From Pseudomonadota bacterium (lineage in GTDB: Bacteria; Pseudomonadota; Gammaproteobacteria; Steroidobacterales; Steroidobacteraceae): a DNA stretch of 64,000 nucleotides. The translations under genes and the position numbers were made by a program. The notes under the pieces are model-generated. The model was not told the DNA's origin. It did not search any database and saw nothing but the letters and a program-made list of their open reading frames with translations. Where the stretch lies: assembly GCA_023423065.1 (NCBI GenBank), contig JAFAGC010000130.1:60118-124117 (forward strand), read 5' to 3'. Below, one piece after another: positions 32,921-46,868 of the stretch. Each line of letters begins with the position of its first letter. Position 1 is the stretch's first letter.

Positions 32921-33298
32921 TCAATCCACAAGTCCAATTAGGTCATCAATTTTTCGCAATTTCTTATTAGCGGCCAGGTAGGAAATTCCCCTGTGCAAAT
33001 GAAGACGGAACTGCTGGCTTAAGGACTCGGCATCACTCTCAAGCTTGTCGCGCACACAACGCTCTTTGAGTAAGGCCAAATAAATCTCGGAATACCTTCC
33101 AGCAAAGACCTTCCAGCTCATCTCGACATTGCTGTCGGCAGGCACCTTTGCCCGGGGCGGCACGCTCTTCTCTGCGAGAGAGACACAGAACGCCCACCGG
33201 CAGAGCGTGTTCCAGTGCTCAATGCCAGTGACTCGCTTGAGCTTGATCAGTTGATCCTTCGCCTGTTGCGAAAGCCGGATGTGGTCAATGGCGCTCAT
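32921..33298 (-). CDS. dndE: DNA sulfur modification protein DndE
   Basis: IRLSQQAKDQLIKLKRVTGIEHWNTLCRWAFCVSLAE is DndE-like. ATG 33298 overlaps the dndD stop (ATGA). Confidence 0.85.
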   Translation of the reverse strand: MSAIDHIRLSQQAKDQLIKLKRVTGIEHWNTLCRWAFCVSLAEKSVPPRAKVPADSNVEMSWKVFAGRYSEIYLALLKERCVRDKLESDAESLSQQFRLHLHRGISYLAANKKLRKIDDLIGLVD

Positions 33299-35286
33299 GC
33301 GGCTGCTCGCGTCTCGAAGTAGCCAGGTACAACTCGTGTGCAACCCTGCTTGTCGTCATACTCAAGCCGATATGTGCGGCCAATCCATGGATCAAGGCGG
33401 CGCAAGTATTCGCCCGAGATCTCTTCGTCTGTTGAGAGGAGGATCACTTGATGGCTCGCAAACGGAAAGTAGCGTTCGACTAGGTGGATGCGGTGATCCG
33501 TGTCGAGACGACCGAGCGGAGTATCTATTGCAGTTGGCAAGGGACGTCCGGATGCCTTAGCCAAGCCCCAAAGCAATGCAATCGCCAATAGCTGCCGCTC
33601 ACCAGCAGAGAGGCGCTCTGCAGTGAGGACCTTGTCGTCGCGACCAAACAGGGTGAGCGAGTACGTTTCTGCATCAATCGTAAGTCGGGTGACAAGAGAA
33701 GACTTCCTCAACAGCTGGCGATAGCTCTCAAGGACCAGCTGCTCAATTCGGCGTACATGCCGTGCCGTCACGGCACGACGAAAGGCACCCAAGGTTTCGC
33801 GGATCTTGCTCGAATGATGCAGGATGCGCGAGCGATCCTGTCGGTCGCCTTCCGCGCGAGCACCTTCTTCTAATAGCCGTGTGAGTGCCTGCCCTTTCCG
33901 TTCGATCTCGCGGAACACCCGTTCGATCTCGCTGCCAATAATGGCGTACTGCGACTCAAGCGCCGCGATCTCCAAGCGCAGCGCATCGCACTTCGAAGCT
34001 ATTTCTGCAACAGTGTCTGCACCTGGAATGCTGTCGAACTTGAGACGTAAACGTTCCGCGCGCACCGTCGCATCGCGCTGCTGCTTCACTTTGACAGCCG
34101 CCTCTTTTGATGTAGAGGCAAGTTCCTCGCGCAGCAAGGCATGCAGATCGGTTCGAGTTTCAGGCAGCAGATCCAGCACCGGCTGGTCTCCGCTCAAGGC
34201 TTCGCGCTTCTGCCTATCCTTCTCGAGAAACTTCTTCACGTCCTCGAGGGCGCCTTTGGTCAAACCTTGTTTGCGCAAGTGCTTGATCATCCCCTCGTCT
34301 CGCTCACGCAGCGTCTGAGCTACCTCACGCGCTTGACGAGCCTCTTCTTCAGACCGATCTCGAGCCGCGACGGCCTTCAATAGATCGCGAACGAGCAGCA
34401 ACGGAGCGGCACCAGCGGCTAGCTCACGAAGGGCCTCGGCACGCTGGGAAACTTCGTCGTCCGCTGCTTTGCGGTCGCGCTCAATCTCGGCTCGTTGCTC
34501 GTAAAGCTCACCGCCGAGCTTTCGGAATTGCTCTTCAAGCTTTGACAGCGTTTTCCGCTTCTGATCTATCTGATGTGTTCGCAACGAGGCGCGTTCCTCA
34601 GCGAGTTTTTCGGAACGGGTTCGCAGGTCCGTCAGTTCGTTCTCGGCGGCAGCGATTTCCGTCCGGGCGACATCATCGCGTTCTTGCGTGCGTTTGCGTC
34701 TCTCATAGACCTGCAGGTCTTTGTCGAGCTGATCAACAATGTCGAGCCCCAGTAGATTCTGGATCGCTGCGCCGATGAGAGAGGAAGAATTGGCGAAAGA
34801 GGCGTAGCTTTCGATCTGTTCACCGTCGAACAAGAACAGGTGTGCAATATTTGGCGGCATCAGGTCTTCGACCTGTGTGATCCAATTGTCCGCCAGTGCA
34901 GGTTCAAGTTGCCCATTGCGCCAAACTTCAAACTGCTCCTTGCAGCCGCTCTCGGTCACGCGCCAAGCGCGCCTCAACCGATAGTGATCCTCGTGCCCTT
35001 CCACGGTGTGCCTGAACGCAAGCTCGATCGAAGCGGCGCGATCTGTAGCGCTGCGATGAATACTTCTGCTCAGATACTCCGGATATCCGATCGATCCGCG
35101 GTTGGAGATCCGAGCGTGCGGACCATACAAGCAAAGCTGGAGCGCATCGAGAAGCGTTGTCTTACCACCGCCGTTCAGTCCACCGATCAGCACAACCGGC
35201 TTCGACGCCGACGGCGGGGTGAAGCAAAGCGTTTGTCGATCGGCATAGAGGCCAAAATTCTGTAACGTGATCTCGTCAAGAATCAT
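33295..35286 (-). CDS. dndD: DNA sulfur modification protein DndD (SMC-like ATPase)
   Basis: MILDEITLQNFGLY...GGLNGGGKTT Walker A, a long coiled-coil middle, LSAGERQLLAIALLW signature, and AIDTPLGRLD. Confidence 0.9.
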   Translation of the reverse strand: MILDEITLQNFGLYADRQTLCFTPPSASKPVVLIGGLNGGGKTTLLDALQLCLYGPHARISNRGSIGYPEYLSRSIHRSATDRAASIELAFRHTVEGHEDHYRLRRAWRVTESGCKEQFEVWRNGQLEPALADNWITQVEDLMPPNIAHLFLFDGEQIESYASFANSSSLIGAAIQNLLGLDIVDQLDKDLQVYERRKRTQERDDVARTEIAAAENELTDLRTRSEKLAEERASLRTHQIDQKRKTLSKLEEQFRKLGGELYEQRAEIERDRKAADDEVSQRAEALRELAAGAAPLLLVRDLLKAVAARDRSEEEARQAREVAQTLRERDEGMIKHLRKQGLTKGALEDVKKFLEKDRQKREALSGDQPVLDLLPETRTDLHALLREELASTSKEAAVKVKQQRDATVRAERLRLKFDSIPGADTVAEIASKCDALRLEIAALESQYAIIGSEIERVFREIERKGQALTRLLEEGARAEGDRQDRSRILHHSSKIRETLGAFRRAVTARHVRRIEQLVLESYRQLLRKSSLVTRLTIDAETYSLTLFGRDDKVLTAERLSAGERQLLAIALLWGLAKASGRPLPTAIDTPLGRLDTDHRIHLVERYFPFASHQVILLSTDEEISGEYLRRLDPWIGRTYRLEYDDKQGCTRVVPGYFETRAAA

Positions 35287-36833
35287 GCGGGTACTTCCAC
35301 TCTTCCTGGCAATTCATGGCTCTCCTGGGCGTTGGGGGGCGTCGGATCGAGAGCGCGCACGCGAGCATCACCTAACGCATCACGTCGCTCACGAGCACGT
35401 TCGACGGCATCATCCTCACTCGAATAGAAGCCTCGATGGAACGCTTGCTCCATCGCATCGAAGAGGCCTGCCCGGCGCAACATCGATTTGTACTGCTTTT
35501 CGATTGAAAGGAGCTCACGGGCGAGCTGAAAGTGAATCTCGTCAGTCCCGCAGATTTCACGTAACAGAGCTACCTCTGCTGCGCCCATGACGAGATTGTC
35601 GTCGATGCGACCGCCCGGATACTTTTCGCCGACCGCATCTTCGTAGATGCCTGGCAGCGTGTCCTCGATTTCATGTTTGTCGACGACCCAGATGCGGCGA
35701 ATCTCTTCGAGCTCAGCGATGGTGATGAGTTGCAGATCGCGAACCTCCGGCGGACCGTTCTCGCGAATATGCCGCTGCGCGCGCAGCACCTTCCGCAGCC
35801 AGGTGGCGCGTACCTCCTGCTTGTAGGGGCCGGGGATCGGCCGATCATTGAAGAGCTGTACGGCGCCGTTCATTCGCCTGAAATCGCGCAGCGGGCGATC
35901 GGCGTCCGGAGTCTTCGGCGGATCTAACTCATTACGGAGTTCTAGGAGCGGCAGCATCCACTCCTTCTCCTCGTCGTTCTGAATCATGGCTTGCATCGAC
36001 TTGTCCTTCTCGACAAGTGTGCACACCCAGCAGCCAAAGCGACTATCACCGCAACTCGGCGTACTAGTGTCGACGACCAGGGGACACTCGCCATCAGCGG
36101 AAGCCCCTTGATACATAGTCAACAAATCCTTGTTGTTAAAACCCCAGGGATTACGTACTTGCATCAAGAAGAGCCAAACATCATCGTTGCTCCAGTCCTC
36201 AAGCGGCGAATACACGAATGAGTTCGGGAGGCTGCCGTTGGGGCTCAACCGATCCCTGACTCGCTTGCGCTCAAACTGCTCCATTACCCGTGCGCGCGCC
36301 GCACTTTCGGCCTTGCGTGTCCCGAGTACGAGAATGGCCTCACCGTGCTTCTGCACGACCGAACTAATGAACTGAGTGGACGGCATGATCTTTAGGCGCT
36401 CAGTGCACCAGCGGAATTTGGGCCGCGGCGCGGGATATCCGCGTCCGATCAAGTTAACCCAGAACGTGTTTGTTGCTTCGGGTGTCAGCCGATGCGGGGT
36501 GATCGGCATATTCTGTTTGGCCGCCTCTGTACCGATTTTCTCCAGCGACTTTGATACCCAAAGCGCGACGATTGGGTTCTCGACCAAGGTGTCGGTACTA
36601 ATGACATAGACCGGCTTACGACGTTGCTCTGCAGGCACCTGCGAGAGGGCAAGCCAAATCAGTTGAAGCGCTGCTGTCGAGTCCTTACCTCCGCTGTATC
36701 CCACAACCCACGGGATATCATCGCTGGTGTAGAGCGCCGTCACCTCATTCATCAGGTGCGCGAGCGTCGACTTCATTCCATGCTCGGTGAATGCCGAGCC
36801 AGCGTTACCGTTCTTTTGATTCTTCTGAGCCAT
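35283..36833 (-). CDS. dndC: DNA phosphorothioation sulfurtransferase DndC (PP-loop ATPase)
   Basis: VVGYSGGKDS PP-loop and a Cys cluster (CGDSRFGCWVC). ATG 36833 is preceded by GAGGGGAAA. The maximal TTG ORF extends to 36893. Confidence 0.9.
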   Translation of the reverse strand: MAQKNQKNGNAGSAFTEHGMKSTLAHLMNEVTALYTSDDIPWVVGYSGGKDSTAALQLIWLALSQVPAEQRRKPVYVISTDTLVENPIVALWVSKSLEKIGTEAAKQNMPITPHRLTPEATNTFWVNLIGRGYPAPRPKFRWCTERLKIMPSTQFISSVVQKHGEAILVLGTRKAESAARARVMEQFERKRVRDRLSPNGSLPNSFVYSPLEDWSNDDVWLFLMQVRNPWGFNNKDLLTMYQGASADGECPLVVDTSTPSCGDSRFGCWVCTLVEKDKSMQAMIQNDEEKEWMLPLLELRNELDPPKTPDADRPLRDFRRMNGAVQLFNDRPIPGPYKQEVRATWLRKVLRAQRHIRENGPPEVRDLQLITIAELEEIRRIWVVDKHEIEDTLPGIYEDAVGEKYPGGRIDDNLVMGAAEVALLREICGTDEIHFQLARELLSIEKQYKSMLRRAGLFDAMEQAFHRGFYSSEDDAVERARERRDALGDARVRALDPTPPNAQESHELPGRVEVPA

Positions 36834-37917
36834 TTTCCCCTCGTCGGAATGCATCCTCGGTCCGCTGCTCCTCTGCCGAGAGCGCGAGCCCAAGATGATT
36901 CTTGATTGCGTTCGTTGTCAGGACCACATTCTGTTGCGACTTTGAAACGCGACCGCCCAGCAAGGCTCGGCCTTCCCACAAGCTGCTATTGCTTCGGCTC
37001 CAGTCCATTGACTGCAGGGCAGTAAGCTTCTTCGACCACTGCTTCGGATATTTTTGGATGAGAGCATTGCCCGCGCGCGCGAGAGCCTGAAGCACCACGC
37101 CATGCGTGTGAATGAAGTCCGTTCGAACCTCACCCGCCGTCATCTCGCCACGCCGAACGCGATCCCATTCGTTCATGTATTTCGCAACGGCTTCCCAAAA
37201 ATTCAAGGCAAGCTCGGCGCTCTCCTGCGGGTCCTCGAGCCCGAGTCCATCGAGCAGATCGCTGGTCGCATGATAGATGGCACTCAGTGTGAAAAGCCGG
37301 CGCGAGCGTGGCGAGAGCGCAGTCTTTTCCATTTCCACGACGTCGCGAAATACGGGCGATTTTGCGATCAATGACTTCGCCATTTCGGCGACGGTGTCGC
37401 GGTGGTCATAGAGGATGCCGAGGGAGGGCGAGGGCCGGATGGCATACCGATTGAGGTCGGCAAACATCTGCTGGCAGCGCTTGAGGCCGACGTCGAGGAA
37501 GAAGACTACTGCGATGCTTTCGTCGCCGAGTTCGGGCCGCTCGCGCAACGCCATCTCGATGGCTGCGCGGCGATGTTGACCATCATTGATGATAAATCGG
37601 GCCTGCATCGGAATACGAAGGAGCCCAATGCGACTCGCCTCACCTTCTTGGGCAAGCTGCTCAAACTGCACCGCGGCGTCGATCGAGGCAGTGATCGCGG
37701 AAAAGACATAGTTCTCGTTGTTGTCGATTACGTAACGTGACATCTCCGGGAGCCGCGCCCGATTGAGGTGGCGCTGCGCCCGCAACTCAGGCACCAGTTC
37801 CTCTTCGTTAAACAGGAACAGTTTCGGAAGCAGCCGCAACGGGCACATCGAGACGTAATATTCGCGACACGCCTGGACGCCCTTGATGGCTGGGAATACG
37901 TACTCGAAGCCGCTCAT
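36805..37917 (-). CDS. dndB: DNA sulfur modification protein DndB
   Basis: MSGFEYVFPAIKGVQACREYYVSMCPL opening, INDGQHRRAAIEMAL, and QQMFADLNRYAIRPS. Confidence 0.9.
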   Translation of the reverse strand: MSGFEYVFPAIKGVQACREYYVSMCPLRLLPKLFLFNEEELVPELRAQRHLNRARLPEMSRYVIDNNENYVFSAITASIDAAVQFEQLAQEGEASRIGLLRIPMQARFIINDGQHRRAAIEMALRERPELGDESIAVVFFLDVGLKRCQQMFADLNRYAIRPSPSLGILYDHRDTVAEMAKSLIAKSPVFRDVVEMEKTALSPRSRRLFTLSAIYHATSDLLDGLGLEDPQESAELALNFWEAVAKYMNEWDRVRRGEMTAGEVRTDFIHTHGVVLQALARAGNALIQKYPKQWSKKLTALQSMDWSRSNSSLWEGRALLGGRVSKSQQNVVLTTNAIKNHLGLALSAEEQRTEDAFRRGENGSEESKER

Positions 37918-37946
37918 GCGTCTTGAACTAAAGAGGGTTGTGCGAT

Positions 37947-37979
37947 ACAAACATAATGAGTGATGTGCGCAATGTTTGT
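37947..37979. promoter_or_regulatory. inverted repeat ACAAACAT-N17-ATGTTTGT in the dndA/dndB divergent region
   Basis: Perfect 8-bp arms at 37947-37954 and 37972-37979. The repeat lies just upstream of the preferred dndA start. Confidence 0.3.
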
Positions 37980-37985
37980 CAAACC

Positions 37986-39155
37986 ATGAACCAAACGTTT
38001 GTATCTCAACACACACAAGATGCAGCGGCTTACTTGGACTGCAACGCGACGACCCCTGTCGAGCCGGCAGTGCAGGCCCTTGTGGCACGGCACTTTGGCG
38101 AAGAGTTCGGCAACGCCGGCAGTCGAACACACGAATACGGCCTAAGGGCGAGCAAGACTGTGCAGCTGGCGCGCGAGCGCGTGGCGACAGTCGTTTCGGC
38201 GAAGGCTGAAGAGGTTATTTTCACCGCCGGCGCGACCGAAGCCAACAACCTGGCGATTCTCGGGCTCGCCGAGCATGGCGAAAAAACGGGCTGCCGGCAT
38301 ATCGTTTCTACGGCAATCGAACACAAGGCGGTCTTGGAGCCGCTTCAGGCCCTCAGCGCGCGCGGTTTCGATGTGACCTTGCTCCGGCCTAAAGAGAATG
38401 GGGCGGTAGATCCCACCGCCATAGCCGCGGCCCTAAAGCCCGAGACCCTATTGGTCTCGGTCATGCAGGCGAATAACGAAACCGGTATTCGCCAACCGAT
38501 CACGGAAATCGCCGCTGCGTTAGCTGGGCACGACGCCTACTTTCATGTCGACGCGGCGCAAGGTTTTGGCAAAGACCTTGAATCGTTGCGCTCGACGCGT
38601 ATCGATCTACTCAGCGTGAGCTCGCACAAGATTTTCGGACCCGTGGGGGTGGGGGCGCTCATTGCCCGACGACGTGGCTTTCGCAAGCCGCCGCTACAAC
38701 CGCTGATGTTTGGCGGCGGTCAGGAACGCGGTCTACGGCCAGGTACGCTTCCTGTGCCACTAATCGCAGGTTTTGGATTGGCTGCCGAGATGGCTGTTAC
38801 TCAAAACGCCCAACGGCGGTCGCGATGCGAGGCCATGCGTTTCGACGCGCTGGCCGCGCTACGCCCGCTCAACCTTTTCATGCATGGCAATCCCGACAAC
38901 GCCCTGCCGCACGTCCTCAACTTCTCCATCGATGGCCTCGACTCCGAGGCAATCATGGTCGCCCTGAAGGGCATCGCTGCCATCTCTAACGGCTCGGCCT
39001 GCACCTCGCAGAGCTACAAACCTAGCCATGTCCTGCAGGCGATGGGGCTGACTGACGCGCAAATCGCGGGCGCGGTACGGATCTCCTGGTGTCATCTAAC
39101 ACCTGACCCTGACTGGCATACCATCGCGGCGAGGCTCGCGCAGATTCAGCGTTGA
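37986..39155 (+). CDS. dndA: cysteine desulfurase DndA (IscS/NifS-like)
   Basis: YLDCNATTPVEP, SSHKIFGPVG (PLP lysine) and SNGSACTS (active-site Cys). Divergent from dndB, as in classical dnd loci. The start is uncertain, with alternatives at 37938 and 37956. Confidence 0.85.
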   Translation: MNQTFVSQHTQDAAAYLDCNATTPVEPAVQALVARHFGEEFGNAGSRTHEYGLRASKTVQLARERVATVVSAKAEEVIFTAGATEANNLAILGLAEHGEKTGCRHIVSTAIEHKAVLEPLQALSARGFDVTLLRPKENGAVDPTAIAAALKPETLLVSVMQANNETGIRQPITEIAAALAGHDAYFHVDAAQGFGKDLESLRSTRIDLLSVSSHKIFGPVGVGALIARRRGFRKPPLQPLMFGGGQERGLRPGTLPVPLIAGFGLAAEMAVTQNAQRRSRCEAMRFDALAALRPLNLFMHGNPDNALPHVLNFSIDGLDSEAIMVALKGIAAISNGSACTSQSYKPSHVLQAMGLTDAQIAGAVRISWCHLTPDPDWHTIAARLAQIQR

Positions 39156-39163
39156 GGGCAGCC

Positions 39164-40429
39164 TTAGGCTGCCGCATCCGCCTCCATCATCCGCAGGTAA
39201 TGCTCCGTCAGAGAGCCAATCTCCACGAGCGTTGGCTTCAGGAAGTTGGACTGGGTGATCATCGTCTCACCCTTGAGTTCCTTTAGCGCCTCAAGCAATG
39301 ACTGCAGCGTATTGAGTGGTGTCTGTCGAGCCTTCTGATGCAGATACTCCGCCTCGACGAGGCGCATCGGCTTCGTGGCCTTCTCAGGGTTGGATACGTC
39401 GAATTGCGAGGCGAACCCGGTACCGTTCTCCGAGTCGTACTTTGACATGTCATTCCACAAACGGATGTTCTCGGCCTTGTAAAAGACGTTTGGATTCTTG
39501 TCCTCATCTTTGCGAGGTTGCGAAAAGGCCCACTGAAAAAGCGCCTTCTCGGCCTCATCCGAGAGGTAGAGCCGGTCTTTAGTGAACGCGAACTGTTCCT
39601 GTGCGTACTTGTGCTGGAGGATGTTCTCGAAGAAGTACTGATCGCTATCTGAGAACTCCTCTCCCTCAGGCAATTGATCGTCGTAGTGTCGCTTGAAGTG
39701 GCTGAAGGCAGAGGCTGCCTGGATGTTGCGACGAGTCTTGGTCTCGCCGAGCGACACCATTGATGCCACGCGTGCGATCAAGTGTTGCTCGAGCCGAAGC
39801 GGCTCTTCATCGCCGTACTGGTCGCGAAACAGTCGCTCGTAGAGCGAGGTAATGTAGAGATTCGTCGCGTAGGGACCCCACTGACGCGCATGCGTGATGT
39901 GCCGAACACCCAGCAGCCGCGGCAGCTTCTCTTCCAATTCCGCAGCCGTGGCCGCGTTCACCGGATAAACCTGAAGCCTGTCGGTGTCATTGAAGATCGC
40001 TTCCAGGCGTTCGACATGAAGCTGTTGCTGCTTGATTTCCTCGGCGGGCATCTTGCTGCCCTTCGTGAACTTCGAGAGCTTCGCTTTCTCTCGCTCAAGA
40101 CGTGGTCCGCGAATGCTGCGCAGAACCGATACGCGCGTATTGCCCTCGACCACAATGTAGTGGCCTTTGCGATCGGGATGCTCCCACACAATGATCGGAT
40201 CGATCGGCACCCAGCCCTGGGCGATGATCGCATCTTCAAGATCGCCGGCCTGGTAGACCGTATAGACCTTCGTGGTCAGGTCTTTTTGCAGGTTCTCCTC
40301 GAAGATTTCTTCGGGATCTTCGTAACGCGTCGCGCGATCCGGCGCAATGCGTGGATTGTTAGGGTCGAGAAAGATCTTCGAAAAGGGGACGGTGATGGCC
40401 TTTCCCAGATCGCCAAATGATTTAATCAT
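39164..40429 (-). CDS. ParB/Srx-fold (ParB N-terminal-like) domain protein
   Basis: KIFLDPNNPRI ... IVWEHPDRKGHYIVVEGNTRVSVLR resembles the ParB-like nuclease/NTPase domain. Its ATG overlaps the helicase stop (GATGATTAA), which suggests translational coupling. Confidence 0.6.
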   Translation of the reverse strand: MIKSFGDLGKAITVPFSKIFLDPNNPRIAPDRATRYEDPEEIFEENLQKDLTTKVYTVYQAGDLEDAIIAQGWVPIDPIIVWEHPDRKGHYIVVEGNTRVSVLRSIRGPRLEREKAKLSKFTKGSKMPAEEIKQQQLHVERLEAIFNDTDRLQVYPVNAATAAELEEKLPRLLGVRHITHARQWGPYATNLYITSLYERLFRDQYGDEEPLRLEQHLIARVASMVSLGETKTRRNIQAASAFSHFKRHYDDQLPEGEEFSDSDQYFFENILQHKYAQEQFAFTKDRLYLSDEAEKALFQWAFSQPRKDEDKNPNVFYKAENIRLWNDMSKYDSENGTGFASQFDVSNPEKATKPMRLVEAEYLHQKARQTPLNTLQSLLEALKELKGETMITQSNFLKPTLVEIGSLTEHYLRMMEADAAA

Positions 40430-42872
40430 CGTTGTTCTCCTCAGCGTGTGCCGAAAGTTTCGAAAGATGAAGCACACGCACGGCGTAGTTGTGTTCACCC
40501 AAGAAGGCTGCGAGATTCAGGAATAGTCGAGTAGGAAGCTCACGCGCGTCACGGCTCGCGAGAAAGCGCGCCAACACTCCGAACTGCTCGGCCGGCGCGA
40601 CCATTTGCAGGTCGGTGGTCGCAGCCGTTGTACATCTATCCAACGCGAAAGCTTCCTCGCTCGATAGCAGCCAGCCTTCGTGGCCCCCGAGCGGCAAGGG
40701 AATCTTGACCGCGAGTACAAAGGGCGTTGCGTCGCTAAGGTAGCTAGCGACGAGTTCCTGTCGGTTATAGCAATCCGCCAGGAAGTTTTGCAGCGCCTCC
40801 GGCAGCAGCGGGCGGAAATGAAAGGTTACGTACCGAAGCCAGGTTGTGGGACCGTGACGCTTCGAGGGCCTCGACTCCTTGGCCATCTTGTTCGAACCGT
40901 AGATCTCCTCGCGGGCGAAGTACGACGCGGTGAGCACCTGCATGAGTTCCGCCCACGCACTACCGGGTGTCAGGTCCTTTGAGACGCCGAATCGCGCGCC
41001 TTCACGCGTCAGAAAGTCTGACGGATCTGAGAGGGTCGCGCCACGCTCGGAGAAAGAATTGAAGACACCGCGAAAGGCCACGCTGTTCTGCGGATACTCC
41101 AGGAAGGCACCCCATGTTGCCTGCTCATCAAATCGCTCTGGGGCACCGTAGTACGGCAGACCATAGAGAAGCAGCCGGCACTTGTCGTCTGAGCCAAGAG
41201 CGGCAACTCGGCCGGTGATGCGCTGGCGAGCCGCCCCACCGACGTTGTAGCGATCAAGCATGTTGGTGACCTTCTGCTTGAGGTCATCCAGGCTTGAGTA
41301 GTCGATATCAATCAGCTCGGGGCGCAGATAGTCGCTGATCTCCTGATACAGCCAGCGCTGCTCGAAGTAGTACGCAAGTTCATCACGACGCGCCTGAACG
41401 ACGTACGCCGCAGTCTTGGACGGTGAGTATCGAACGCAGCGTCCCGCCGCCTGCATCAATCGCACCAGACTCGAGGTCGGATATGTCAGCACCACGGTAT
41501 TGATGCTTGGATCGTCAAATCCTTCGAGCAACAGCTGCGCAGAAACCAGAATCGCGCGTGGCTTCTCCGCGAAGATGTCCAGGAAATCGTCGTTGTCGAT
41601 ATGAAGCGAGTTACCGCTGCCATGGATGAACCCGATATCGGACACATCTAGGGGATGCCCATCGGCTTGGGCGGTTGCGAGGGCTTCGAGCAGAGCATCG
41701 TGGAACTCCACGACGCGCTCGATGCGCGGCGCGAGAACCAGAACTTTCGTGAACTCTCCGCCGCAGCGATCGATGACGTAGTCCGCGAGATCTTGAACCT
41801 GAGATTCCGACCACTCGAAATCCTGAACAGGGAATGGCTCGAACTTGGGCATGACGATGCAGCCGCGTTCCTCGAGCTCTCGATACGTGATAGTGAATGC
41901 GACCTCGTCGATGCCGATCGGCAGCAGGTCTGCACGATTCGGCGTTGCGGTGAGAAAAAGCGCTGGAACGGGATAGGTCGCCTCAAAAATCGGTTGGTAG
42001 GTGGGCGCAGCGGCGTGGTGAGCTTCATCGACGACCACAAGTACAGGCGGCACAGCATCTTCGGCAAGAATAGTTGTCAGCTCACTTACCATGACAAAGC
42101 GAATCCGCTTGGCGAGCAGTGACGCCGCATCATCTGGCACCGCGCTGCGACTGGTGGATAACAACTTCTGAAGTTCTCGGTGCGCCTGAGTACGCAGGTT
42201 CTTGCGATGCGTGACCCAGTAAACGAGCCCTGCGGCGTTCGCTGACTTGGCCAGCATTTCCAGGACGATGCGAAGCGCCGTGCGCGTCTTTCCAGCACCG
42301 GTGGGAAGGATCAGTCCAACCTTCGAGTGTGGTCGTTGGCGAAACGCATCGAGGCAATGCGAGACAGCGACGTCTTGGTAGCTCCAGTCTGGCGTCGTGC
42401 CGCGAGAGCGACCCGCAGTCTCCGGCTTAAGCGCCACCGCAACGGCACCGCCGATCGTCGTCGCGGCGGGCTCCGTTGAGAGAACGTGACGAAGGACGGC
42501 CGGAGGTAATCCCAACCGCCTGATGAGGTCCTCGCGTGGAAGCCGACGGTCGTCTTGCAAGTGGCGAACCTCTGCTCGAAGTTCTACCAAGCGCTTTTCC
42601 GAGCGCTGCCGCCAACCCGAGTCGGAGACTGTATAGGTGGCAACCGCCGCCTCAACGAGCCCGATGGTTGCGTCATTCACACCGCGGGAAACGTCGTCCG
42701 ACAACAAGGCATGAAGACGATTCGGATGAATGACCTCCCCATCACGCTTATCGAGCGCCAAGTTCAATGTCTTGCAGAGGGCCGCGGTGTTGCGCTCGGC
42801 GAGAAAGAGCGGAACAAGCTGCCCGTCGACGAGCTCACGGATGCGGGGGTCATGAATGCTGATACGGGCCAT
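40422..42872 (-). CDS. SF2 (DEAH / type III restriction Res-like) helicase, dnd-adjacent
   Basis: Motif I ILPTGAGKT, motif II VVVDEAHH, motif III LTATPNR, motif VI QAAGRCVRY. About 160 aa at the N-terminus and about 330 aa at the C-terminus are unassigned. Confidence 0.8.
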   Translation of the reverse strand: MARISIHDPRIRELVDGQLVPLFLAERNTAALCKTLNLALDKRDGEVIHPNRLHALLSDDVSRGVNDATIGLVEAAVATYTVSDSGWRQRSEKRLVELRAEVRHLQDDRRLPREDLIRRLGLPPAVLRHVLSTEPAATTIGGAVAVALKPETAGRSRGTTPDWSYQDVAVSHCLDAFRQRPHSKVGLILPTGAGKTRTALRIVLEMLAKSANAAGLVYWVTHRKNLRTQAHRELQKLLSTSRSAVPDDAASLLAKRIRFVMVSELTTILAEDAVPPVLVVVDEAHHAAAPTYQPIFEATYPVPALFLTATPNRADLLPIGIDEVAFTITYRELEERGCIVMPKFEPFPVQDFEWSESQVQDLADYVIDRCGGEFTKVLVLAPRIERVVEFHDALLEALATAQADGHPLDVSDIGFIHGSGNSLHIDNDDFLDIFAEKPRAILVSAQLLLEGFDDPSINTVVLTYPTSSLVRLMQAAGRCVRYSPSKTAAYVVQARRDELAYYFEQRWLYQEISDYLRPELIDIDYSSLDDLKQKVTNMLDRYNVGGAARQRITGRVAALGSDDKCRLLLYGLPYYGAPERFDEQATWGAFLEYPQNSVAFRGVFNSFSERGATLSDPSDFLTREGARFGVSKDLTPGSAWAELMQVLTASYFAREEIYGSNKMAKESRPSKRHGPTTWLRYVTFHFRPLLPEALQNFLADCYNRQELVASYLSDATPFVLAVKIPLPLGGHEGWLLSSEEAFALDRCTTAATTDLQMVAPAEQFGVLARFLASRDARELPTRLFLNLAAFLGEHNYAVRVLHLSKLSAHAEENNDD

Positions 42873-42967: not shown

Positions 42968-43140
42968 TTGGAATACATAGGAAAAACAGAGCGATAGAAG
43001 CGTGCAGGCCGTTTACCTGCAGGGCTAAACCTCTTTCGCACGTGCTTGGATGGCTCATCCGTCTTGTGCCCAAAAGGTGCTTGGTGCATAGGTCGGCGTT
43101 CAAATGCCGGACGGAAAGGGACCGTGAAGGAAGCAGTGCC

Positions 43141-45804
43141 TTGAATGGCGAAGCACAACGCGCCCCCGCGCCAGACACATCGGCAAGACTCGGTAAGCAG
43201 GTTGCCGACAGGTGCTACGTCCACGTCAGCGGCATTGACGAGCTCGATGAGATATCGCGCGACCTGGCGAGTGAAGGCATCCGAATTTCGGGGCTCACGC
43301 CTGGGCACGATTTCAACGTCGTTCGAGTGCGGCCTTCTTGCGGTGAAGTCGCCCTCCTCGACTATGCTCAGTTCTTCGTCGAGGCGTTCCCAGCATTGGC
43401 CCGCAGCTGGCGAGTACATATTCCAACGGAGACCGTTCGTCTCCGCGACTACTCCGCGTCTCTCAATCCGCCGATCCTGCATCGTAAAGAGCTGTTGCTG
43501 ACCGCGACGCATCCTGACCGCGCGCAATTCGCCGCACTCACCGCCTCTGCCGAATCGTTGGGGTTATTCGATGACCCGCATCGCATTGGTTTCAAGGCGC
43601 AGTGGCACGAGATCCTGCAACGCCGTGGATACATGGTGTTGGACCACGCATTGCTTCCTATCGGAAATGCCGAGCCTTCGGCAGATGACACCGAGATCGT
43701 TGAGCTCCGCCAGATCCAGCGCCACCTTACGGCGCTATCGCGCACCTCTCTTTCGGCGCCGATTCAGAGCTTGTTGCGCGACGATCTCCTGAAACCGGGC
43801 ACCACATTCTTTGACTACGGATGCGGAAAAGGCGATGACCTTCGAGGACTCGAGGCGCTGAGCATTTCAGGCAGCGGTTGGGACCCGTATCACCATCCGA
43901 CTGGTATTCGCGTGGAGGCGGATGTCATCAACCTCGGATTCGTAATTAACGTGATCGAAGACTTCGATGAACGCGTCGAAGCGCTCCTCGGTGCCTTCAA
44001 GTTGTGTCGTCAAGTCCTGGCGGTTTCTGCGATGTTGGAGGGGGCCGGGAAACCCGGTCGGCCGTTTCGCGATGGGCTACTTACGGGACGCAACACGTTC
44101 CAGAAGTATTTCACTCAAAGCCAACTCCAGCAGTTCATCGAGGCGGTGTTGGACGAGGAAGCGATTCCAGCGGCCCCGGGTGTCTTCTATGTGTTTCGAG
44201 ACCGACTCTTTGAGCAACGCTTCCTCGTTCATCGTCAGAGCAGCCGACTCCGCCGCCACCGCGCTCTGCCTAACCGCTCAACAATCGTTGCGCCGAACCA
44301 ATGGACAGAGCCGACGCCGCATCGCGTGCAACGCCGGGAAGCGCACACAGCAACGCCTCAGGATGAGGTCAGACCTCCACGTCTAAGACATGCCCGTTCG
44401 CCACCCGCGATCGATCAAGCCAAGCAAGAATGTGCATTGCAGTTGTGGAATCGCTGTATCGAGCTTGGGCGGAGCCCAGAGCCTGATGAAGTGGAAGGGC
44501 TTCCGGAAGTCGAGGCCCAATTCAGCTCTTTAGGCAAGGCAGTGAGGTATTGCCTCAAGAACTTCGATCGAGACGCGCTCGATAGATCAGGTCATGCACG
44601 ACGTGACGAGATACTGGTGATCTTGGCAATCGCGCGTTTCTCCAAGCGTCGTCGCTTCCACGACTTCGAAACGCGCCTTCAACGCGACATCAAAGCTTTC
44701 TTTGGATCATTGGCGAACGCCGAACGCGACGCACAGGCGCTGCTGTTTTCCGTAGGTGATCCTCTTGTACTTAGCGCGGCATGTTCGGATGCCGCGACAC
44801 ACGGGTTAGGCTACCTGGAGGAAGGCCAATCTCTTCAACTTCACACCTCCTTGGTGGAGCGGCTCTCGCCTGTGCTTCGGGTGTATATCGCTTGTGCAAC
44901 AGCACTCTTTGGCGACGTAAGAAATGTGGACTTGGTGAAGCTGCACATCAGTTCTGGAAAAGTAACGTTGATGCGCTTCGATGACTTCGTGAACAAGCCG
45001 CTCCCCGCAATGACCGAGCGAATCAAGGTAAAGCTCAAAGAGCAGGACATGGACATCTTCCGATACGGAGGTGATTTTCCGGAGCCCCTGCTCTACGAAA
45101 AGTCGCGCTTCATAAATGAGGAGTTCCCAAACTACGCCGAGCAAATCGCATTCGAAGAGAATCTTGCCCAACTCGCGCTAGTCGACGTCTCCGGGTACGG
45201 CCCCTCTGCAAGAGTTATCAACACCGCGCTTAGAACTGCTCGTTGGGAGATTGATGGTTTTGAGCTGCGACGAAGCCGCACATTGCCTGGTCTCGAAGAA
45301 AGATGCAGCCGATACTTCACGTATCGCGAACTCATCGAAGTAGGCGATACGTGGTCAAACACGAGGACCCCGAATGTCCCAGCGTCACCGGATACCTTCA
45401 ACGCGATCGGGGATCTTGCCCGACTGGTGCTTGATCCCGTCGTGGAGTATTTCGGCAAGATCGAAATCACATACGGCTTCTGCTCGGCAACGCTGGCGCG
45501 GCAGATCAAGCGCGGCATAGATCCGAAACTCGATCAGCACGCATCATATGAGCTCAATACGCGGGGCAAGCGCATCTGCGATCGCGGGGGGGCCGCCGTT
45601 GATTTCATTGTTCAAGACGAAAACATGCTGGAGGTCGCTCAATGGATCGCCACGAATACACCCTTCGATCGCCTTTACTACTACGGACAGTCTCGACCGC
45701 TTCATGTGAGTTTCGGCCCTGATGCACGCCGCGAGTTGATTGAAATCGAGGAGATTAATGGACGAAGAATGCCGCGAAGGTGGCGCCACTCATCGGCGAA
45801 CTAA
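43141..45804 (+). CDS. dnd-associated putative SAM methyltransferase fused to a C-terminal M15 (Zn DD-peptidase/Hedgehog-fold)-like domain
   Basis: NPPILHRKELLL and FFDYGCGKGDDLRGL (motif I). The C-terminal KIEITYGFCS...LDQHASYE...GGAAVDFIV...PLHVSF matches the order of the H/D/H metal ligands in M15A. The TTG at 43141 has AAGGAAG upstream. The maximal ORF (GTG) starts at 43042. Confidence 0.65.
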   Translation: MNGEAQRAPAPDTSARLGKQVADRCYVHVSGIDELDEISRDLASEGIRISGLTPGHDFNVVRVRPSCGEVALLDYAQFFVEAFPALARSWRVHIPTETVRLRDYSASLNPPILHRKELLLTATHPDRAQFAALTASAESLGLFDDPHRIGFKAQWHEILQRRGYMVLDHALLPIGNAEPSADDTEIVELRQIQRHLTALSRTSLSAPIQSLLRDDLLKPGTTFFDYGCGKGDDLRGLEALSISGSGWDPYHHPTGIRVEADVINLGFVINVIEDFDERVEALLGAFKLCRQVLAVSAMLEGAGKPGRPFRDGLLTGRNTFQKYFTQSQLQQFIEAVLDEEAIPAAPGVFYVFRDRLFEQRFLVHRQSSRLRRHRALPNRSTIVAPNQWTEPTPHRVQRREAHTATPQDEVRPPRLRHARSPPAIDQAKQECALQLWNRCIELGRSPEPDEVEGLPEVEAQFSSLGKAVRYCLKNFDRDALDRSGHARRDEILVILAIARFSKRRRFHDFETRLQRDIKAFFGSLANAERDAQALLFSVGDPLVLSAACSDAATHGLGYLEEGQSLQLHTSLVERLSPVLRVYIACATALFGDVRNVDLVKLHISSGKVTLMRFDDFVNKPLPAMTERIKVKLKEQDMDIFRYGGDFPEPLLYEKSRFINEEFPNYAEQIAFEENLAQLALVDVSGYGPSARVINTALRTARWEIDGFELRRSRTLPGLEERCSRYFTYRELIEVGDTWSNTRTPNVPASPDTFNAIGDLARLVLDPVVEYFGKIEITYGFCSATLARQIKRGIDPKLDQHASYELNTRGKRICDRGGAAVDFIVQDENMLEVAQWIATNTPFDRLYYYGQSRPLHVSFGPDARRELIEIEEINGRRMPRRWRHSSAN

Positions 45805-45854: not shown

Positions 45855-46868
45855 CTATCGCACGCGAGGAGGTTTCTCCCGAGAGCTGTCGGAAAGCCCG
45901 GTAGCGATCCACTCCCGATCCGTTTGTGGTTCTGACATGCGCTCGATGAACTTCAAGACTTCGTCAGCTAGCTGGCGATGCCCGCCTTCTACCAACCGAT
46001 CTGTCGTTGCGCGCCATCCGTGTTTGACGTTCTCGCGAGTCGTGAGCAAAGCACTTTTACCCTGCTCAATGCGAATATTGCCGCGCGACAGTTCGGCGGC
46101 GACTGACTCGACCCGCTCTCGCACGTGGCTTGAGGCCCCTCGCAGGCTGGCTCGAAAGATTCCGTCCTTCGCCGATTTTCTGTCTTGTCCACGAACTGCA
46201 CGCTCGGTAGCGTTCGCCGGCACACCGAGTTGCCGCAAATTCTTCGCGAACTCGGACCGCCAATGCCGCAGTTTTGCTTTTCTAATATTCAGACGCACAC
46301 CTTGCTCGTTCATCGCTTTCAGCACTAGGTGAACGTGCGGATGGTCTTCGTCTGTATGCAGGACGAACGCGTATCGGTGCTGCCCCCAGAACTCTTCCCG
46401 CGCCAGGTTACGAACGGCAGTGAGCACTTTGTCCGGCGGCGTTCCGGCAGGCATCGAAAACATCAGCTTATGAACCAACTTCGCTGGAGTTCTTCCTTGC
46501 GTCCCAGCGAGCGCGGTTTGGCGCCGAGCATCGTCGATATCCAGATCCCATTCCTCTAAGAGTGCCATTCCCCTTTCATCTTGGAGTCCAAGTCCGGAAT
46601 CAGTTTCTAACTCGAGCCCTCCGTATCGACTGATGTAGTCGAGATGGTTTGCTGCGGCCTTCAGGTCGTTGCTCGCTCGCGGAAGTACCTTCACCATCAC
46701 TTCGGGCGTGCGCTTTACTGTCCGGCGAATCTGCTCTACCTGTTCATGTGTTAGACGACCACCGTTTTCACGCGGCCCACCACGACCGTAGGACACGATG
46801 TCGAACAGTGCTTCGCCTCCGCTTGGAACCCTAAACTTGGGCATGGCCAACGCTCCAGCTTGTGACAT
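45855..46868 (-). CDS. relaxase/mobilisation nuclease (VirD2/MOBP-like)
   Basis: The histidine triad region FVLHTDEDHPHVHLVLKA and the N-terminal region preceding it are relaxase-like. An alternative start lies at 46844. Confidence 0.8.
   Translation of the reverse strand: MSQAGALAMPKFRVPSGGEALFDIVSYGRGGPRENGGRLTHEQVEQIRRTVKRTPEVMVKVLPRASNDLKAAANHLDYISRYGGLELETDSGLGLQDERGMALLEEWDLDIDDARRQTALAGTQGRTPAKLVHKLMFSMPAGTPPDKVLTAVRNLAREEFWGQHRYAFVLHTDEDHPHVHLVLKAMNEQGVRLNIRKAKLRHWRSEFAKNLRQLGVPANATERAVRGQDRKSAKDGIFRASLRGASSHVRERVESVAAELSRGNIRIEQGKSALLTTRENVKHGWRATTDRLVEGGHRQLADEVLKFIERMSEPQTDREWIATGLSDSSREKPPRVR

Follow-up and report, generated by a model that had tools for sequence, protein, structure and literature searches.

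A long-form TIGR04096 protein beside a dnd cluster pairs a predicted methyltransferase with a predicted zinc-site domain of Peptidase_M15A kinship

Phosphorothioation (PT), to our knowledge the only natural modification of the DNA backbone, occurs in a small minority of bacteria. Dnd systems modify double-strand motifs, Ssp systems single-strand CCA, and apart from DndA-E, SspA-D and the known effectors, little is understood of their accessory proteins. The effectors and readers described so far (DndFGH, SspE, SspFGH, DndI, PbeABCD and the ScoMcrA-type SBD) lie beside dnd or ssp genes, and we know of none that uses an M15/LAS zinc domain or a methyltransferase of small-molecule type. Here we analysed a window of 64,000 nucleotides from a Steroidobacteraceae bacterium (GenBank assembly GCA_023423065.1, contig JAFAGC010000130.1, positions 60,118 to 124,117), in which the plus strand at 43141..45804 carries the gene of an 887-residue long-form protein of NCBIfam family TIGR04096 (dnd_rel_methyl, 'DNA phosphorothioation-associated putative methyltransferase'), with a dndABCDE set 4 kb upstream. 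The protein occupies the same genomic niche as the known effectors and readers but shows no sequence relationship to them (PADLOC gave no match for it) and has a different set of domains. Its family, embedded in Dnd and Ssp operons, is present in at least 570 species-level genomes; in the full-text literature we found no dedicated or functional study of it, nor one of an M15 domain in PT systems. We propose, with a probability of roughly 0.6, that the long form of TIGR04096 is a PT accessory protein of both Dnd and Ssp systems, the tail of which is predicted to be a zinc hydrolase or reader in the cytoplasm, with PT-DNA or a methylated intermediate as its target.

Judged by its sequence, the window gene is an ordinary, typical member of this catalogued family. 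The match to TIGR04096 reaches 540.9 bits (E 2.7e-162, model positions 1-476 of 478) for a curated cut-off of 150 bits, which bears out the dnd-associated methyltransferase body proposed in a preliminary description made from the letters of the stretch. It spans residues 191-710 of the 887-residue form, whose numbering is used below unless the 920-residue form is named, and residues 224-743 of the latter. The window protein shares with the family its length class (about 840-890 residues), its invariant motifs and its dndABCDE neighbourhood, and no family-level difference was seen. The curated model covers the methyltransferase core, a helical domain and the second of two repeats (repeat B) only; the family carries no annotation for the first repeat (repeat A) or for the M15A-like domain.

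The C-terminal domain (residues 720-880; 45298..45780, plus strand) is poorly visible to direct searches. Pfam scans of the whole protein and of its N-terminal piece returned no M15 family, the isolated tail had no match in Pfam even at E ≤ 10, the window domain did not reach the PF08291 gathering threshold of 23.2 bits, and a PF08291 scan of the source genome did not report the window gene; among 41 relatives of the domain, 4 matched PF08291, the strongest at E 0.049. Searching PDB sequences with phmmer gave noise only (ribosomal L43 at E 1.2). An exhaustive phmmer search of the tail against 1.84 billion representatives returned 434 relatives, every one of them either the C-terminus of a protein of about 850 residues or a stand-alone protein of 160-200 residues. 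Because the relatives are limited to these two kinds, the tail constitutes a distinct, bounded family.

Profile-profile comparison placed this family more precisely. We aligned the window tail with 40 stand-alone relatives (alignment A2) and took bona fide PF08291 genes from the relatives' genomes. With hhalign, A2 matched nine PF08291 domains at a probability of 93% (E 3.3e-7), a single phage-type member at 96.9% (E 1.8e-10), and an alignment of 24 Pfam-verified PF08291 homologues of that phage-type member (A3) at 99.0% (E 4e-18, 152 aligned columns), while the controls, a reversed alignment and 20 column shuffles, gave at most 0.7%. Members of the YcbK/MepK type alone gave only 6.5%, so the kinship is specifically to the phage-type subfamily. 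AlphaFold2 (AF2) run on A2 produced a confident domain model (pLDDT 93.3, pTM 0.87). Foldseek found nothing for it in PDB at E ≤ 1e-3, the best M15 entry being the endolysin LysB4 (6akv; E 2.2, TM 0.31-0.36), and 20 matches at E ≤ 1e-3 among the predicted viral structures of BFVD. Nearly all the named ones are called "Peptidase M15A, C-terminal" or "Peptidase M15"; the top match, of the first name, has an E of 2.5e-9, a probability of 1.00 and a TMq of 0.69 over 176 of 184 columns. A reading of the tail as a DNA-recognition domain, from 52-column PDB matches to M.TaqI, CamA and PglX (probability about 0.1), was dropped after the BFVD and hhalign results. Profiles and predicted structures thus identify the C-terminal domain as a homologue of phage-type Peptidase_M15A with the LAS/Hedgehog fold. 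The preliminary description had suggested an M15A/Hedgehog-fold tail, open to refutation by profile searches and to checking by structure prediction: plain Pfam scans indeed stayed without significance, but the suggestion held in the profile-profile alignment and in the domain model with its M15A neighbours. What is new here is that the tail is a divergent, ligand-retaining and insert-bearing M15A clade without Pfam coverage or discussion in the literature.

Phage-type PF08291 (Peptidase_M15_3, MEROPS M15A, annotated as 'zinc D-Ala-D-Ala carboxypeptidase family metallohydrolase') is homologous to the window domain over its whole length of about 150 residues. Common to both are the order of secondary-structure elements, the positions of a His/Asp/His triad, and the motifs F..E...T...N.P, LDP, PFD and HVS, the first three of which recur in A2 and A3 alike. 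In the alignment of A2 with A3, H800 (codon 45538..45540, in DQH), D821 (45601..45603, in GAAVD) and H855 (45703..45705, in HVS) coincide with the canonical S-x-H, G-x-A-x-D and H-V-S positions and are the predicted first, second and third zinc ligands. The three are invariant in 49 full-length and in 41 domain or stand-alone sequences. The predicted metal triad is thus retained; the H/D/H ligands put forward as candidates in the preliminary description fall on the canonical ones, and the lack of conservation that would have counted against them was not seen in these 90 aligned homologues. A2 as a profile had a sole match among PDB sequences, the N-terminal domain of Desert hedgehog (2wg3), in which EGRALD..FDWVY..HVSV aligns with GAAVD..FDRLY..HVS of the window domain and covers its second and third ligands; at an E of 1.1 this match is not significant alone and suggests no kinship beyond the common LAS core.

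Around the triad, the PT-linked family has been remodelled. Residues S58 and R61 (of SGYR), N66 and E112 are invariant in A3 and are presumed to bind substrate or to act in catalysis (the SGYR Ser and Arg, the LN Asn and the YE Glu). None is kept in the PT-linked family, where they correspond to Y, to C or a variable residue, to a variable position and to Y, respectively; the window domain has YGFC in place of SGYR and has lost the conserved Asn and Glu. Between the first and the second ligand the spacing is H-x20-D, against H-x6-D in the phage-type domains, and H-x(3-6)-D was not found. The wide spacing is due to an insert of 14 residues (about 802-815; 45544..45585) that is absent from canonical M15A, was modelled confidently by AF2 as a small hairpin, and contains an invariant Glu, E804 (45550-45552), and an invariant Cys, C813 (45577-45579). 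In A2 and in the 49 full-length proteins, the invariant residues are D798, Q799, H800, E804, C813, G817, D821, D843, H855, S857 and P878. We infer that E804 and C813 come together with the three ligands at a single metal site. The settings differ as well: the phage-type domain belongs to a phage lysin or virion protein, the window domain to a cytoplasmic multidomain context.

The remainder of the protein was described from a full-length AF2 model (pLDDT 83.7, pTM 0.74), which orders it, all on the plus strand, as repeat A, a disordered linker, the methyltransferase core, a second disordered linker, a helical domain, repeat B and the M15A-like domain. The core (residues ~200-366; 43738..44238) is predicted to be a SAM (S-adenosylmethionine)-dependent methyltransferase from its motif I, FDYGCGKGDD (FFDYGCGKGDD at 43807-43839), and its class I Rossmann-type fold. 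The only Pfam match on the body was a weak one to Methyltransf_23, below threshold and over motif I. In a Foldseek search of PDB with the full-length model, the top 50 matches were exclusively class I methyltransferases of small-molecule, thiol and RNA type, among them cg3271, CcbJ, Trm9, CypM, the bacillithiol methyltransferase NmbA, TehB and HEN1 (E 1e-4 to 1e-2), and no DNA base methyltransferase was among these 50. A motif IV of the form (D/N/S)PP(Y/F/W), or PCQ, as in DNA base methyltransferases, was not found in the catalytic domain. The modelled core thus resembles small-molecule methyltransferases, not DNA base methyltransferases. The stretch NPPILHRKE is not a motif IV, because it is located in repeat A, outside the core.

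Repeats A and B are homologous alpha/beta domains of about 150 residues (hhalign 98.5%, E 3.3e-15, 148 columns; also seen as a second high-scoring pair in BLAST), an internal duplication that flanks the methyltransferase and helical regions; neither matched a Pfam family. Repeat A, unclassified as to fold, occupies residues 19-173 (43195..43659) and bears NPPILHRKELLL (43465-43500), which the preliminary description had ascribed to this family. N109, P110, P111, H114, R115, E117 and L118 within it are invariant family-wide (49 full-length sequences), so that it stands as a family motif, but it falls outside the span of the TIGR04096 model. Repeat B, a second copy of the same fold, lies at residues 558-711 (44812..45273), with PEPLLYEKSRFI at 45079-45114. 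Between core and repeat B are a linker that is probably disordered (residues 379-422; 44275..44406; pLDDT <50, with gaps or variation in BLAST alignments to split homologues) and the all-helical middle domain (residues 426-553; 44416..44799).

The combination of these parts is not peculiar to the window. A search with the tail in which candidates had to be full-length found the domain in at least 1,399 clusters of about 840-890 residues; the named ones are mostly called PT-associated methyltransferase and a few "peptidase M15". The sequences thus show the fusion of methyltransferase and M15A-like domain as the family's normal architecture and not as a feature of the window gene, which settles whether the domain is general in the family. 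A protein 99% identical to the window protein is encoded on 3 other contigs, and these contigs together with the clusters rule out a unique fusion or an assembly artefact. The two parts also occur as separate genes: stand-alone M15-like genes adjoin TIGR04096 bodies of about 650 residues in dnd and ssp operons, in both gene orders and with 9-38 nucleotides (nt) between them or with an overlap. In one locus (L107, 6011-8576) dndA is followed by a body of 670 residues and then by an M15-like gene of 191 residues that overlaps the body by 23 nt. In six others (L101-L104, L110 and L112; pairs at 8001-10568 in L101, 6001-8578 in L110 and 6001-8539 in L112), sspBCD or sspA is followed by an M15-like gene of 183-199 residues and then by a body of 642-663 residues. 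In Endozoicomonas (L111, 6001-8503), a 162-residue M15-like gene precedes a 674-residue body beside tusA and dndBCD. Against TIGR04096 the split bodies reach 551-555 bits, or else they align with residues 15-704 of the window protein. Since the M15-like and methyltransferase parts are found either fused or as adjacent genes in both orders, they are obligate partners that work together.

Two loci depart from this pattern. One (L109, 5449-6603) is a deletion remnant in which pieces of repeat A (residues 18-186) lie directly upstream of a 200-residue M15-like open reading frame, the methyltransferase core is missing, and the neighbouring genes encode a small Methyltransf_23 protein and a ResIII helicase. 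In the other (L105, 6677-8570), a stand-alone M15-like protein of 189 residues (P0370) shares 43% identity with the window domain; PT genes are absent from its surroundings, and it is preceded by a 404-residue protein without family match, which may be a different partner for the domain.

We surveyed the genes within 7 kb of the family in 80 species-level loci. Dnd genes were present in 19, ssp genes in 21 and both in 1 (41 of 80); 9 more had a dndA/sspA-type desulfurase only, and 30 had none of these. The TIGR04096 unit is co-oriented and tightly packed with dndA/sspA and with sspBCD. DndA/SspA are its commonest direct neighbours: a cysteine desulfurase gene adjoins the methyltransferase in 24 of the 80 loci, and about 14 of these 24 genes are co-directional with it and end within about 20 nt of its start. 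We then checked 30 genomes, namely 29 of the 30 without PT genes at the locus and one with a desulfurase only (L051). DndC was encoded elsewhere in 9 of them and SspD in 13 of the remaining 21 (22 of 30 together), which brings the genomes carrying dndC or sspD to at least 63 of 80. As the protein accompanies both Dnd and Ssp systems, it more likely targets PT chemistry than a sequence motif. TIGR04096 owes its name to its association with phosphorothioation systems. PT-dependent TIGRFAMs, such as the sister model TIGR04095, were defined by phylogenetic profiling in the ProPhylo paper (PMC3226654).

One orphan arrangement was seen on the complete chromosome of Methylotuvimicrobium sp. KM1 (L003, 8834-12517), where a dndA-like desulfurase gene directly precedes the TIGR04096 gene and neither DndC (E ≤ 1e-20) nor SspD (E ≤ 1e-30) was detected anywhere in the genome; this may be a desulfurase-methyltransferase pair working without a PT writer.

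The M15A-derived domain appears to have been repurposed inside the cell. It would no longer act on peptidoglycan. Its zinc site, either hydrolytic or contacting sulfur, would lie in the cytoplasm and operate in cis with the methyltransferase; the target would be PT-modified DNA or an intermediate, either a methylated PT or one of the sulfur relay. The core would methylate a nucleophile, possibly the PT sulfur, in a SAM-dependent manner, and this methylation would be linked to a hydrolysis or recognition step that zinc assists at that same site, with the outcome that PT marks are tuned or edited and the cell wall is not cut. The family always pairs a methyltransferase of small-molecule type with a phage-type M15A domain that has been remodelled but keeps its predicted zinc ligands. 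It would be a clear case of a cell-wall peptidase fold taken over by a cytoplasmic DNA-modification system, and is relevant to the question of how cells tune, read or remove PT marks. A more specific and very unlikely version makes TIGR04096 a two-step PT editor, in which S-methylation of the PT sulfur is followed by binding or hydrolysis of the S-methyl phosphorothioate triester at the zinc site. The mark would then be erased, with release of methanethiol and restoration of the phosphodiester, or the DNA would be nicked. If true, this would be the first enzymatic eraser or processor of PT and the first LAS-fold domain to act on nucleic acid.

Several points weigh against a PT-directed zinc hydrolase or reader. 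Methylation of a PT sulfur is a plausible idea that comes from chemistry and context only, and the literature searched holds no experimental data on any member of the family. Neither the Pfam hidden Markov models nor the PDB searches gave a significant match for the tail domain. That the three ligands meet E804 and C813 at one site is a presumption, and the retained triad would equally fit real peptidase activity or a purely structural zinc site. Moreover, neither DndC nor SspD was found in 8 of the 30 genomes checked, including the complete Methylotuvimicrobium chromosome, so PT may not be an obligate substrate.

Among the alternatives, the tail could be a non-catalytic module with a structural zinc site, to which C813 might contribute a fourth ligand, and could serve to form oligomers, to dock onto DndA/SspA or another PT protein, or to bind DNA. 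Consistent with such a role, the tail has lost the residues presumed to serve catalysis and substrate binding in canonical M15A, it has an invariant Cys in an insert next to the ligands, and fusion and fission with the body indicate a tight physical partnership; the N-terminal domain of Hedgehog, in which the LAS fold is used mainly for binding, provides a precedent. However, the polar residues D798, Q799, E804, D843 and S857 around the site are invariant, a pattern more like an active site than a scaffold; we consider a non-catalytic tail unlikely, though worth keeping in mind.

It is more doubtful still that the tail is a working peptidase of the peptidoglycan or D-Ala-D-Ala type, triggered by the part of the protein that senses PT, with a role as suicide or abortive-infection effector or, in the manner of VanX, on cell-wall precursors in the cytoplasm. 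The homology to phage M15A lysin-type domains and the intact His-Asp-His triad would suit such an enzyme, cytoplasmic M15 enzymes such as VanX exist, and the neighbours are often PT-dependent restriction modules (ResIII-PLD helicase-nucleases in 11 of the 80 loci and FGH-like trios in 10). But none of the four residues that are invariant in the closest canonical subfamily (Ser and Arg of SGYR, Asn, Glu) is kept, inspection of the N-terminal sequence reveals no obvious hydrophobic, signal-like stretch, and the gene is co-operonic with modification genes (dndA/sspA, sspBCD) and not with effector genes.

That the association with PT is mere co-location in defence islands, the protein being an independent enzyme such as a small-molecule methyltransferase-hydrolase, is most improbable: the small-molecule type of the core, the 32 of 80 loci counted as lacking a PT gene within 7 kb and the 8 of 30 checked genomes without DndC and SspD would agree with it, but dndC or sspD is present in at least 63 of the 80 genomes although PT systems are rare in bacteria, in many unrelated lineages the gene, whether split or fused, follows dndA/sspA directly and in the same direction or is embedded after sspD, and both the family's name and the profiling of its sister model point to PT.

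The open frame of the window gene covers 920 codons (43042-45804, plus strand, in the list of open reading frames) and is not a chance frame, given the 540.9-bit match to TIGR04096 and the at least 1,399 homologous clusters. Every motif that the preliminary description had quoted for this frame was located in its translation: in 920-residue numbering, NPPILHRKELLL at 142-153, FFDYGCGKGDD at 256-266, ITYGFCS at 809-815, DQH at 831-833, AAVDF at 851-855 and HVSF at 888-891. The longest frame opens with GTG at 43042, and TTG at 43141 gives the 887-residue form. The latter is probably the true start, because it stands 7 nt after GAAGGAAG, because the 99%-identical database protein P0002 (887 residues) begins there, and because conservation among homologues sets in about 17 residues later.

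In the window, the phosphorothioation writer cluster (32921..39155) consists of dndE, dndD, dndC and dndB on the minus strand and dndA (37938-39155) on the plus strand. The TIGR04096 gene diverges from a helicase gene ending at 42872 and converges on a MobP1-type relaxase gene (45855-46868); it appears to stand alone, on the border of the dnd cargo that a mobilisable element carries. In the interval from dndA to the methyltransferase gene, the minus strand (39164-42872) encodes a ResIII/DEAD helicase of 816 residues and an overlapping ParB-like protein of 444 residues with an N-terminus resembling PD-Lambda-5_A in PADLOC. This pair was considered as a module of the methyltransferase and rejected: a ParB-like gene was adjacent in 0 of the 80 loci, and the helicase gave weak matches only, in 6 of 80. 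It looks like a separate inserted module.

Two further kinds of neighbour recur in the surveyed loci. A trio of proteins of 635, 517 and 1812 residues lies next to TIGR04096 in 10 of 80 (including L015, L028, L032, L059, L073 and L075); the two of them that were tested had no Pfam match, and their sizes suggest a candidate restriction module of the DndFGH/SspFGH type. A small class I methyltransferase of about 195-213 residues, with matches to Methyltransf_23/25/11 and weak ones to TehB/TPMT, stands beside TIGR04096 in L024 (11937-12578) and in five other loci (L008, L014, L017, L022 and one like L109).

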